A stretch of DNA of 64,000 nucleotides from Lingula anatina (Eukaryota > Animalia > Brachiopoda). The stretch lies in NCBI GenBank assembly GCA_051362555.1, contig CM120648.1:14690587-14754586 (forward strand). The letters are read 5' to 3'. A program made the translations under genes and the position numbers. The notes beneath the pieces were generated by a model, which saw nothing but the letters and a program-made list of their open reading frames with translations, searched no databases and had not been told where the DNA came from. Positions 24,893-47,977 of this stretch are shown piece after piece; position 1 is the first letter of the stretch, and every line of letters starts with the position of its first letter.

Positions 24893-27800
24893 TTAGAAAA
24901 TAAAGTATCTCTGTGCCAGAGCCAGTCTGTTGGCAGGAGGACAGGTCAGGTGTTGTCCCTCAGGATGATCAGCTGTCTCCACTGTCACTTTGTACGAGTC
25001 AGGGTCAACTGGAAGACATAAAAAAGTACTGATTGTAATTTATGTGATAAGGTGTGATAAAATGATTGCAAAGATACTACAGACAAAGGAGCAATTACAA
25101 GGACATGGATAGTTCTTCTTGTTAAAGAAGAACTATCTTATTAAATCTTGTTATTGCAACCACCAAATAGCTAAAAGCTCTTGTTTAATTTTCAGTTTAA
25201 AAATTAAAAGAAATCAAACCATTTCAGGAAATCCAATATTGTCTAAAATATATGATTTTCCCATCTTTATTCAGGTACTTCTAACATGTCTTGGGTAGCA
25301 AATGGTGAATCGTCTGTTTACCAAGGTCAATAATATTAAACAGTTTTTTTCAGAGATCACTACTTCTCTGAAATACAACCACTGTTGCTGCTTCATTTTT
25401 AGAGTTAAGACCACCTTGTCATTCAAATCTCTTAGGGTTCCATGGCTCAAATCTCCCCATGTCTTTCCTCACCTGTTATCTTGGGCAGTAAATCATTCAA
25501 TGCCATGGCAGCTTTGGTCAGACCTCGACAGCTGTCCACAGCCACAGCTTTCTTACTGATCCCATATGTAGCCGTCACTCCACTGTTAGCACAGGCCTGG
25601 AATTGGGAACAAGATATTACTATAAATCCCAAAACAATGTATTCAAACACTGCAGTTACTTCCTCTTTTGGCTTAATATATAAATAATTACAGTCTCAAC
25701 ACATATCTACATAACACAAATAAATGTAATCTCTAGGTCACAGCTATCTACACAAGCATTCTGAGCAGGACAGTTATTATGCACCTCCATCATCCAGCTC
25801 AGTGCAAACCATGCCACATAACTTGATGCAAATGGTTGGTGTTCAATGAGAAATTGGATTAATGGTACCCGAGCCCCCACCCTGACTTGCTCAAAACAAA
25901 ATGACAGATTCTTCCAGTCTTGTACCAAAAGGCTGCAGAGTTATGGCCTTATTTTCACCATCCCGAATAATAATAATAATAATAATAATAATAACTTCTC
26001 CAGGACAAGGGACAAAGGGTTGAAATAAACCTGTCCCCACTTGTTGACCTCCTGGGCATGCTAATGCTCACCTTGGATACAAAGACAACGGAGTTGGCTC
26101 CCACAGACTTTCCGTAAGCTCCAAACATCTTCCTTTGTCTCACTGGCTCTGGTGTAGGAATGGATGCATTGGGCATGCCTACACAAACAAGAGGCATGGA
26201 AATATGACTATGTAACAGAATTAACCATATATTTAATAATTGCGATCTTACATATATAATATTGCAGTTATCAATTTATTCTGCCAAACTGTCTATCTAT
26301 TGCTTTAAAAAATTGTTAGTGAGGCAGTTATTTCTTCACTCAATTTAAGTGTATTTCCTAAATAATAATAAATACATGTTTTATTTTCCAAAAGCTGTCT
26401 TTTTAATATTACTCTCTGCCATAAGTATTCACTTCCTTCTTTAATGGTATTTAAACTCTCAACCTATGTCCCAATAATTTATGTAAGATTTTAGTAACTC
26501 ACAACAAAATGAGTTTTACTGCACTACTTAGAATATCTGGAAAGTTATTTTTTAATAATGACCACTAAACCATTATCTCTGGAAAACACCAAGTTTTTCC
26601 CAGCAGTCCTCACCCATCTGTGCCCAGGCTATCTGGCCGCCCTTCACAATGATCTCTGGTTTGGCTCCAAAGAATGCAGGCTGCCATAACACCAAGTCTG
26701 CCAGTTTGCCCGGCTGAAAGAGAAACAACTTTAACCTTTATTTCTTTCAACAAAAGTATCAATATAAAGAAAACATTAATAAGACAAAAATACTCGGGAA
26801 TGTTCCAGGAAGAGAAAATTTTATAGAAGTTCACTATGATTTCATTTGTTTTCAGAGCTGCTACACACAAATACTGTATTTGTTTTCAATAAAACTAGGT
26901 TATTCTACCTTGATGGGACCCTTGGAGGACATCTCATTACAGTCAAGTAAATGTAATTCTTACAGTGGGAAGTGAACATTAGACTGGACTCATATATATA
27001 TGGTGAATTAATGGCAATCACACAGTCAGCTTAGGCTCTAAATAAAGCCTGTTCTAAATGACTGGAGCCACGACTACAGAGGCATCAGGTGCCCCCTACC
27101 TCCACTGATCCTATCAGTTTCCCCATGCCATGTGCCACAGCTGGGTTGATGGTATACTTGGCAATGTAACGCCGGACACGGATATTGTCATTGTCACCTG
27201 TCTCTACTGTCAGCCTGCCTCTGAACTGCTTCATTTTATCTGCCGTCTGCCATGTCCGGGTGATCACCTCCCCTACTCTGCCCATTGCCTGCAACAATTA
27301 ATATGTAATATGTATCAAAATAAATCTAAGAAATAAGCATAAATTAAAAATTCATTAAAAAGCTGATGGGAACTGCAATTTATCAAAACAAAGAAGACAG
27401 TATTTCACTTCATCCTGATCACAGACATTACTTTCCATCTTCAGCTCAAATGGTAAAAATATTCAATTTAGTTCAAGTATATGGTCAATATCAGATTGCA
27501 TGGTAATTTATTATAAAAGTGCAAGTATTTTGCCAAATCTATCCCAACATCAGATTGCAACACATCTATCACAATATCCCAGCTGAAACGTCACTGGTTA
27601 CCATACATGTCATGCCAACCATGTCATCACTGAAATCTTATTATAGGTGTCACAACCAAATACTAAATACAAGACTGACCATGATGTGTTCAGCAATCTA
27701 CAGCTTTCATTTTGAAATCAGGAGAAATGGATGCTTTTAAAATTTAAGTTTCACAAAAGTGATACAAATAAAAATGAGTAACTCTTTATCAACAAATGAG

Positions 27801-45810: not shown

Positions 45811-47977
45811 AACTGGAAGATTAAAAGTTTGAATAGCATCTTCATTGGAATTATATTTACCTCAAGCTCTGCCAAGGAGGTCATATTTTCACCCCCGTTT
45901 GTCTGTCATCCACATAACACAAAAAGTTATGGACTGATTTTGCAGAAATTTTCAGGAACTGTCGGAAGTGGGCCAAAGAGGACAATGATTAATTTTTGGT
46001 GGTGGTCTGGAACAATAATCAATCAATTATCAATAATAATCAACAATTGCTGACTTGGCAGTGGTCTGCACTCTCAAAGTGCTTTTCTAGCTTTGTTATG
46101 TTTTCCTTTATAATTTTTTCTCAAACACTTGCATTTGTGACTTTTAACTCTCATCTGCCTGGGGCTCTGCACATTTTCTGTGTTTCCACATAAGCAGTTG
46201 TATTGTTTTTTATGTCTTTAAACATTATGTAATATTATTTTATGCACTGTCATCATTTTTCAAATATTGAGAGTTTCATAGTGTGAATTTGAACTCTCAT
46301 GGTCCTGAAACTGTAATTTTATTGAAGGGGTGGACCATCTTCTGGGTCTTCCTGAAGACAGTCAGGTTATTAAGTTTATATTGACTGGTATCTATTTTTT
46401 TCTGTTGGAAGACCATCAAAATGGAGGATGGATCAACATAGATACTTTGTAATACTGTCAGAAAATATCTCTGGGTCCGCTCCTGTTATTGACCATGTTA
46501 CCTGTTGTGCAAGATTAAAATTCAGTGTTGACTGACAATGCTATTATAAGCATTATTTATTATTGCATCAAAATTGACAAAATGACCTATTTTGCATCTT
46601 TATTTTCTGTTTTTTGTCTGTACATTTGACAGCTTTGCTGCCTTGTTTTTATGAATGTGGTCTCTGAATTAAAACAGGACTGTGTATATTGGTATGAATT
46701 CACATGCAAATATTTCATTTTAGAGAAGACTGGGAGTTTTTGGTCCGTAACAAAGCATTACCAGAGGAGAGAATGCGAGCTGTGGAGACAGGAGGCTGTC
46801 CCCATGCTGCCATCAGAGAGGTAATGTTGAAGAGAGGGGGGGGGGGGAGAAAGAGGGGAGGAGGGCGAGGGGGGAGAGAGAGAGGGGAGAGGGGAAGTAT
46901 ATCTTCAGCCCTTATGTCATTTTTAGTTTATTTCATTTCTATCCACAGTGTACTTATAAATGAAGTTTTCATTTATTTTCCCTAATATTAAGGATTACTC
47001 TCTGAACCTGGAAGAAGTGATAGATCTTACCAAGCAGTTCAGCCCAGAGCTGGTCATTATAGAGTCTGGTGGGGATAATTTAGCCGCTAACTTCAGCCGA
47101 GAGCTGGCTGATTACATCATATACGTCATAGATGTTGCAGGTATGTATTAGGCATTGTGTGACCTGAAAATGTGCTGGAATTTGCATGAGATATGGTTGA
47201 TTTTTTAGCAATAAGTGCGAAACTGTATATGGAGGCAATGCTGTCTTAGAAACCTATACAAAAGTGATCGATCCAGCTTGTATGACGGGTTTATGGGAAC
47301 ACTCCCAAGTTGCAAGACTTTGGGCTATCTCAGATGATTCACACTGGTGCCATCTACATGTATCTTTAAGAATCAGATCCAAATGGACAGAATAACAAAG
47401 TATACAGTAGAAAACTGTATGTGTATGAATGTAGTTTAAACATTTGAAAAGTACAGAAAAAAGAGAATTCTGACAATTTGGTGACTTCATCAACTCCATA
47501 TTTCCAAAGGTGGTTGATGACATGGTGGACTATCATTTCTTTCTGTTTCAGGAGGAGATAAGATCCCGAGGAAGGGAGGTCCAGGCATCACTGAGAGTGA
47601 TCTCCTGGTCATTAACAAAACTGACCTGGCCGAAGCTGTTGGGGCTGACCTGAAGGTAAACAATTGGGATTAAATCTTATCTTGTATGGAAGAAATTTGG
47701 CAACACATTAAAAAAAAAATATTGTATGAAGATTAAAATAAACAGGCACTGTATACAGTGTAGTTATGTTTATTAGGTGTTACTTTCACTTTTGCTTTCT
47801 CTCTTTTTTGTGAGTTTGATGGGGGTTTCATTATATTTTCACCAGGTGATGGAGAGAGATGCGTCCATGATGAGACAGACAGGTCCAACTCTTTTTACTC
47901 AGGCTAAACACCTGGTTGGTGTTCCTGAAGTGGCAGAACATATCATGACTGCACTGAGAGAGACCGCAGCTAGCTGA
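39510..47977 (+). CDS. ureG: Urease accessory GTPase UreG with His-rich N-terminal extension, 7 coding exons, ~269 aa
   Basis: Exons 39510-39552, 40539-40699, 41032-41156, 46724-46820, 46993-47140, 47552-47655, 47846-47977 (810 nt; an in-frame ATG also at 39501). P-loop [22 protein letters not shown], metal-binding [39 protein letters not shown]-terminal [21 protein letters not shown]. Confidence 0.96.
40166..40370. mobile_element. MITE family A, copy 3 (ureG intron 1)
   Basis: CATTCCCAGAGATTAGATCGATC ... GATCGATCTAAAATCTATGGGAATG with the shared core. Confidence 0.72.
42020..45420 (+). repeat. Helentron-associated (HINE/DINE-like) element with hierarchical tandem arrays in ureG intron 3
   Basis: (GTCGTCGCC)n head; ~161-bp units at 42093, 42255, 42416, 42575 and again from ~43130; a ~0.9-kb higher-order duplication; then ~335-bp units from ~43995. 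Confidence 0.65.
45856..46090 (+). mobile_element. Short Helentron-associated element; related inverted copy at 59814-60101
   Basis: Sub-TIRs CTCTGCCAAG / CTTGGCAGTGG and 3' hairpin GCACTCTCAAAGTGC-TTTTCTAG. The 59814 copy starts CTAGAAAAGCGCTCAGAGAGCGCAGACCTTCGCCAAG and shares the internal TGGCCCACTTC(T/C)GACAGTTCCTGAAA. Confidence 0.62.

Follow-up and report, generated by a model that had tools for sequence, protein, structure and literature searches.

In bacteria the structural and accessory genes of urease lie side by side in ure operons, as in Helicobacter pylori and in Klebsiella aerogenes, whose operon reads ureDABCEFG. Plants and fungi instead make a fused gamma-beta-alpha chain together with a His-rich UreG, no UreE being seen, and in Aspergillus fumigatus the genes for UreB, UreD, UreF and UreG are found on chromosomes 1, 2, 2 and 6 (AFUA_1G04560, 2G16070, 2G12900 and 6G04385), leaving urease unlinked. 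Among eukaryotes, clustering is on record for green algae, for which Foflonker and Blaby-Haas, citing Qiu et al. 2013, describe a conserved neighbourhood of urease-assembly genes (PMC7826186), in which a eukaryotic single-chain urease is physically linked to accessory genes. For animals, a 2018 review describes ureases as not made by them (PMC6077230). Urease was found in Nematostella, Strongylocentrotus, Branchiostoma and Ixodes (PMC3073912), was listed in Acropora digitifera (PMC3750612), and was detected as a protein attributed to the host in the coral Montipora (bioRxiv 10.1101/2024.04.02.587798). Here we describe a 64-kb window (the whole stretch of DNA analyzed) from the brachiopod Lingula anatina, in which a urease gene and the gene for the GTPase UreG stand head to head. 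With a probability of roughly 0.72, the two are divergent over a short, likely bidirectional promoter and the pair is likely the remnant of a cluster older than the split between corals and bilaterians.

The locus shares features with each of these systems. As in the bacterial operons, structural and accessory genes are adjacent and serve the same enzyme and maturation chemistry, but in Lingula the subunits are fused and two separately spliced transcripts arise from opposite strands in place of one polycistronic mRNA. The fused chain, the identical metal ligands, the His-rich UreG and the lack of a visible UreE are those of plants and fungi, while the linkage is unlike the arrangement in A. 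fumigatus. Compared to green algae, with which it shares a linked single-chain urease, the animal locus is intron-rich, is reduced to urease and UreG in Lingula, with UreD adjacent in corals, and appears to be kept as a pair across several animal phyla. The earlier animal reports (PMC3073912 and PMC3750612) concern the same orthologous family; the parts of them available here cover the enzyme only, call it rare in metazoa and make no mention of linkage to UreG or UreD. Both Lingula genes in RefSeq, animal urease genes and algal urease clusters are thus already known; what appears undescribed is the cross-phylum linkage of urease and UreG in animals and the addition of UreD to it in corals. The original prediction named no earlier description of the linkage. 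For animals, full-text searches found no report of it (subscription journals or supplementary microsynteny tables could list the pair); the prediction had overlooked that urease clusters have been published for green algae (PMC7826186) and that UreD belongs to the neighbourhood in corals. The parts seen of PMC13255410, PMC12274423 and PMC2944026 contained nothing on the question.

The urease gene (24893..39004, minus strand), delimited by the gene model, RefSeq, Pfam/NCBIfam and comparison with plant ureases, encodes a single gamma-beta-alpha chain of 859 amino acids. It is intact, as predicted, with 21 coding exons (39004-38879, 38087-38018, 36626-36544, 36355-36245, 35222-35085, 34958-34881, 34416-34337, 33743-33638, 33008-32907, 32648-32436, 32196-32134, 31568-31360, 30361-30239, 29748-29667, 28754-28510, 27951-27837, 27288-27100, 26713-26614, 26178-26072, 25596-25473 and 25008-24893), all 20 introns of the GT-AG type, a coding length of 2580 nucleotides and zero internal stops. 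The fused gamma, beta and alpha domains gave Pfam E-values of 1e-39 to 1e-75 for four urease domains, the NCBIfam model TIGR01792 was matched with 908 bits (cut-off 680), TIGR00192 and TIGR00193 also scored above their cut-offs, and the protein aligned over its full length with the plant ureases 4G7E (pigeon pea) and 3LA4 (jack bean) at E=0. The ligand set used for comparison consists of four His, one carbamylated Lys and one Asp (PMC10100864); all six predicted ligands are kept (H416, H418, K503, H532, H558 and D646), as are the flap residues C605 and H606. The same H,H,K,H,H,D set was present in 36 of 38 aligned ureases, the two exceptions being models that lack the first two His. By its fused chain, ligands and flap the protein would belong to the eukaryotic single-chain ureases (EC 3.5.1.5), as far as sequence features can tell. 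Two tandem repeats within the gene copy the ends of its exons (28693-29042 and 29363-29709): a 92-bp unit, present 3.8 times, corresponds to the acceptor of exon 15 and the start of that exon, and one of 59 bp, present 5.9 times, to the end of exon 14 with its donor. Near 32310 the start of exon 11 is copied in part. These repeats of exon ends create decoy splice sites within an otherwise intact gene.

The UreG gene (39438..47977, plus strand), established from RNA reads, RefSeq and TIGR00101, encodes 268 amino acids in seven coding exons (39438-39477, 40539-40699, 41032-41156, 46724-46820, 46993-47140, 47552-47655 and 47846-47977). The protein scored 268.7 against TIGR00101 (cut-off 204.2) and 57.7 against HypB (cut-off 121.2), which identifies it as the SIMIBI GTPase UreG and not HypB, and it carries the P-loop, the CPH metal motif, NKTD and a His-rich N-terminal extension of the eukaryotic type. 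Fusions of UreG with UreF or UreD were absent among nine long UreG matches. An intact seven-exon gene ending at 47977 on the plus strand had been foreseen correctly, but its start, placed at 39510 with 505 bp between the two ATGs, had to be revised. RNA reads came from seven of nine raw-read runs under the same species label, whose source animals diverge from the window sequence by as much as 5-10%. Reads spliced from 39477 to 40539 numbered 38, 34 and 10 in three of four runs and zero in the fourth, and the second junction was covered in all four. Exon 39438-39477 yields the N-terminal C/V-x-F-x-K/R-A/G-G stretch of other animal UreGs, and the intron that follows it agrees with an intron of the coral gene. 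The earlier candidate for exon 1 (39510..39552, plus strand) was rejected: it falls within intron 1, and none of the four runs lists a junction that starts at 39552. Because RNA reads and RefSeq both make 39438-39477 the first coding exon, the true distance between the ATGs is 433 bp.

The 433-bp spacer between the start codons (39005..39437) holds both 5' untranslated regions (UTRs) and the likely shared promoter. RNA 5' ends were estimated from read depth in 53-base bins and represent the furthest reads, not capped ends. On the minus strand, urease-side RNA reached furthest within 39040..39251 (to ~39045 in run X6 and, with four reads, to ~39225 in run X1), while plus-strand RNA began in the bin 39305-39357 (~39335) in runs X1 and X3, so that the UreG 5' UTR occupies 39305..39437. 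The divergent 5' ends, in terms of furthest reads, are therefore ~100-300 bp apart, a distance within the 1 kb below which gene pairs are classed as bidirectional. Urease and UreG exons were read from opposite strands in the stranded runs; in X6, urease exon 1 had a depth of 17-20 on one strand and less than 2 on the other, and UreG exon 1 a depth of 7.75 versus 0. The junction of urease exons 1 and 2 was supported by 15 reads in X6 and was not listed in the other three runs compared. These spliced, stranded reads confirm the divergent transcription that had been anticipated. The further claim of one bidirectional promoter is plausible in Lingula, where the 5' ends are close and the CpG content of the region is kept, but it does not extend to corals, in which UreG faces a different gene. 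The 433-bp spacer thus likely acts as one bidirectional promoter in Lingula; a shared promoter is indicated in this species only, and the linkage itself is indicated to be old. Within 38879-39251, X1 has four minus-strand reads at ~39075-39225.

Searches for ten promoter motifs in the spacer returned nothing significant, and 39005-39437 lacked matches to TATA, CCAAT and GC boxes. Two TGCRCNC cores, which we take to be the core of the metal-response element (MRE), are located at 39223 and 39256, compared to 0-1 in the coral spacers. They are a lead only, since at least two such cores occur in 5 of 147 equal-sized slices of the window and this was one of the ten motifs tried. The ratio of observed to expected CpG (CpG o/e) sets the locus apart from its surroundings. 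A CpG-depleted domain (24500..50000) covers both gene bodies and is interrupted at the promoter and at intronic repeats, the median CpG o/e being 0.21 over the gene bodies (44 bins) versus 0.77 in the flanks (75 bins; p=1.6e-13). The promoter region (38879-39552) has a value of 0.77. Patterns of this kind reflect gene-body methylation of steadily expressed invertebrate genes, and the depleted domain is likely due to germline gene-body methylation. Depleted gene bodies around a CpG-rich promoter argue for long residence in the host genome.

Linkage in other animals was inferred from scaffold lengths and gene identifiers in protein tables, not from genome coordinates, for the 40 species, which are not independent samples, that had both genes among the best 120 matches listed. 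Species with only one gene among the matches listed were left out (e.g. Priapulus, Argopecten, Saccoglossus, Owenia, Aplysia and ticks). Urease and UreG were on one scaffold in 32 of the 40 species, 11 of these 32 on scaffolds of less than 2.5 Mb. Consecutive identifiers, which by usual numbering practice would denote neighbouring genes and do so in Lingula, as the window DNA shows, were found in 11 of the 40 species and six phyla (brachiopod, annelid, molluscs, tardigrade, echinoderms and amphioxus): Lingula, Capitella (ELU10480/81), Lottia (ESO91379/78), Mytilus edulis (CAG2224743/42), Bulinus (Btru_008578/77), Hypsibius (OQV21346/45), three Branchiostoma species, Amphiura (XP_072040163/62) and Diadema setosum (XP_072175026/27). 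In another nine (Anneissia, Antedon, Ptychodera, Paramacrobiotus, Mya, Elysia, Oculina, Pocillopora verrucosa and Stylophora) the genes share a scaffold and are at most 25 identifiers apart. A common scaffold was all that linked them in the remaining 12 of these species, three of which have scaffolds of less than 2.5 Mb, including Acropora digitifera at 100 kb. Two amphioxus models merge the urease C-terminus with a sialyltransferase, which likely places the consecutively numbered UreG on the 5' side of urease. In Bulinus, UreG is accompanied by two partial models of urease (Btru_008578 and Btru_008579). Absence of the linkage in relatives, which was to have counted against the original prediction, was not what these species displayed. 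That the adjacency of urease and UreG has been kept across distant animal lineages is well supported, if indirectly, by identifiers and scaffold lengths. To judge from the identifiers, many bilaterians as well as corals have retained the neighbourhood, and it is broken in chelicerates and Nematostella.

A pattern for the UreG intron after 'AAIRE' retrieved 19 metagenome loci, none with urease exons, and no loci in genome contigs or viral contigs. Several of the metagenome loci are coral-like, with more than 90% identity to UreG exons of Pocillopora or Oculina, and three of them represent distinct coral contigs (L018:570-11688, L013:1775-10865 and L014:2611-3160; L005 is the same sequence as L018). 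All six UreG introns of L018 agree with those of Lingula in position and phase. Downstream of UreG and convergent with it, L018 and L013 carry UreD (Pfam E-values of 1.8e-11 and 2.5e-08), with six exon-sized stretches common to both contigs at 83-98% identity; beyond it L018 has an HPS3-like gene facing the 5' end of UreD. UreD of the coral type is represented by a stand-alone protein of 310 amino acids; the ESM Atlas confirmed the UreD family and yielded no range within animals. In Oculina one gene number separates UreG (G023804) from urease (G023806), which would fit a coral layout with an intervening Tctex-1 gene. Stony corals thus likely hold three of the four pathway genes (urease, UreG and UreD) together, though not as a head-to-head pair of urease and UreG. 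Neither DUR3 nor UreF was seen at the Lingula locus or on the coral contigs. A GC-rich, non-animal-looking contig (L001:833-2260) has UreG facing an EMP70/TM9SF gene, with the intron after 'AAIRE' as in animals.

Several observations weigh against an old cluster held together by a shared promoter. An intronless Tctex-1 gene faces UreG in all three coral contigs, with the ATGs 206 bp (L018) and 259 bp (L013) apart; together with the EMP70/TM9SF gene of L001 this makes the divergent partner of UreG exchangeable. Head-to-head orientation was read from DNA in Lingula only, as none of the 19 metagenome loci has a urease exon. The two genes are on different scaffolds in 8 of the 40 species (Nematostella, Mizuhopecten and 6/6 chelicerates), two of them with fragmented assemblies (Limulus and Stegodyphus), so the linkage is dispensable, and the coral layout and the unlinked chelicerates make a shared promoter something that is not required; the 6/6 chelicerates suggest a single break in that lineage. 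Among the 32 same-scaffold cases, 12 count by scaffold length alone, nine of these at chromosome scale and weak as evidence, and in Glandiceps the identifiers are 358 apart. UreD is missing from the 64-kb window: a hidden Markov model built from 57 UreD matches recovered five coral exons and no window fragments, tblastn likewise found nothing, and a Pfam search of 135 flanking open reading frames of at least 52 amino acids for UreD and UreF gave seven sub-threshold, unrelated matches, a search that UreF exons of less than 52 amino acids would escape. Depths of urease exon 2 and UreG exon 1 were 5.7/12, 4.2/26.5, 0/1 and 22.9/7.75, without a fixed ratio, although this ~20-fold spread comes from four low-depth runs of two studies and is confounded by library type. 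X1 and X3 had zero depth on urease coding exon 1 and 4-6 on exon 2, a gap that could be due to an alternative first exon or to thin coverage.

An alternative is an old but passive linkage, in which the CpG-rich promoter of a housekeeping UreG gene fires both ways and takes any neighbour, and urease and UreG stay together through slow rearrangement and not from a need for co-regulation. The varying partner (Tctex-1 in corals, EMP70/TM9SF in the non-animal-looking contig), the link broken in eight species, the shifting depth ratio and the unrelated nature of the other Lingula neighbours are all in its favour. We nevertheless regard it as unlikely, as two genes of a four-gene pathway are consecutive in 11 species of six phyla and UreD is adjacent in corals, while the other neighbours change (corals have Tctex-1 and HPS3, amphioxus a sialyltransferase and Lingula sulfotransferases). 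Passive linkage would moreover account for persistence and not for the initial grouping of the pathway genes. The remnant of an older cluster therefore remains the preferred reading. A more extensive version of it is tentative, at somewhat less than even odds: the coral-bilaterian ancestor may have had an operon-like cluster of urease, UreG and UreD, perhaps derived from a pre-animal arrangement as in green algae, and most urease-bearing invertebrate lineages may still have urease and UreG head to head on one promoter.

The origin of the animal genes was approached with a quick, unrooted IQ-TREE analysis of the C-terminal 590 amino acids of urease (61 rows), in which deep nodes were unresolved. 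All 25 labelled animal ureases fell on one side of a branch with a support of 99, with the alveolate Vitrella and one unlabelled sequence on the same side and 12 bacterial rows apart. Molluscs, echinozoan/asterozoan echinoderms, hemichordates, cnidarians and spiders each grouped together. The sequences fit an animal urease that arose once, no later than the split between corals and bilaterians, and has been inherited ever since. At residue 746 of the Lingula protein (exon 19, 26178-26072), the Asp of an otherwise constant 10-residue stretch is replaced by Met, Leu or Asn in animals (M, N or L in 26/26 scorable animal ureases), unlike the D of plant, fungal and bacterial rows, and Vitrella brassicaformis has Met at the matching site. 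The substitution is possibly an animal marker, and transfer or contamination may have involved Vitrella. Horizontal transfer of an operon fragment or an algal cluster into the animal ancestor, with introns gained later, could draw on the operon-like grouping of urease, UreG and UreD, on animal ureases that do not group with fungal ones and on the position and Asp-to-Met change of Vitrella. It is improbable by a wide margin, as the single-chain urease and the His-rich UreG are eukaryotic forms, the bacterial rows are separate from the animals and the intron after 'AAIRE' is also present in the GC-rich, non-animal-looking contigs L001, L003 and L006. No donor can be named, because deep branches are unresolved and the tree is quick and unrooted.

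Both genes belong to the nuclear genome of Lingula itself. The window matches the L. anatina RefSeq loci LOC106151113 (urease, 859 amino acids) and LOC106151114 (UreG, 268 amino acids), single-exon searches gave 100% identity to both, and the two are on one scaffold of 319,905 bases. Eight of 859 residues differ between the window urease and its RefSeq counterpart (P0001 in this analysis) and two between the window UreG, with corrected exon 1, and the 268-amino-acid RefSeq protein (P0122), which likely makes the window a different haplotype or assembly of L. anatina. The locus spans 23 kb with 28 coding exons, and the animal-type surroundings described earlier were recovered as a family-3 G-protein-coupled receptor (7tm_3 and NCD3G domains), a Sulfotransfer_2 gene and a Gal-3-O-sulfotransferase. 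Contamination, symbiont sequence or mis-assembly, to which the review statement that ureases are produced 'not by animals' (PMC6077230) would lend itself, is hardly credible in view of the 26 GT-AG introns, the flanking genes of animal type, the CpG pattern of the host, a repeat in the locus common to the rest of the window, the poly(A) reads that are spliced, the consecutive RefSeq loci, which encode proteins slightly different from those of the window, and orthologues in ~10 animal phyla. The predicted endogenous pair of enzyme and chaperone is accordingly upheld, as intact host genes that are divergently transcribed and spliced.

Repeats also occupy the UreG introns. Intron 1 contains a ~200-bp repeat with inverted-looking ends (40166-40374; copies at 13013-13206, 35277-35482 and 60616-61081), over which RNA depth exceeded 1000 in some runs, originating from copies elsewhere; it likely belongs to a family of miniature inverted-repeat transposable elements common in transcripts. 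Minisatellite arrays of 161-bp and 337-bp units (42093-44949) enlarge intron 3 to 5.6 kb, and the arrays of the 161-bp unit have retained CpG although they lie in the depleted domain, which suggests recent insertion.

By analogy with plants and fungi, apo-urease would be made in the cytosol. UreG would bind nickel via its CPH motif and His-rich N-terminus and so replace UreE, the nickel-holding role that a His-rich UreG takes over in the plant and fungal pathway (PMC10100864). Together with UreD and UreF, both presumably encoded outside the window, it would hydrolyse GTP, load two nickel ions and carbamylate K503. Active urease would then convert urea, released when purines or arginine are broken down, to ammonia and carbamate, and these products may serve nitrogen recycling or local control of pH and carbonate; nitrogen recycling would be the simplest reading for Lingula. 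With a shared or adjacent promoter, joint expression would be favoured and a break between the two genes would come at a cost.

In invertebrates it is difficult to tell host urease activity from that of symbionts, and a widely read review denies animal urease altogether (PMC6077230). A urease that is intact and expressed, and to which its own maturation GTPase is linked across phyla, argues that host-encoded nickel-dependent ureolysis may be common in invertebrates. If the more extensive cluster reading is true, the pair would be one of only a handful of metabolic gene clusters that animal phyla have retained in common and would provide genomic evidence for nickel as a true enzyme cofactor in many invertebrates. 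Lineages with linked genes (Lingula, molluscs and amphioxus) and with unlinked genes (chelicerates and Nematostella) offer a natural comparison for the clustering of pathway genes in eukaryotes. The locus also makes two questions testable, whether nickel is an essential enzyme cofactor of animals and which role host urease has, nitrogen recycling or biomineralisation.

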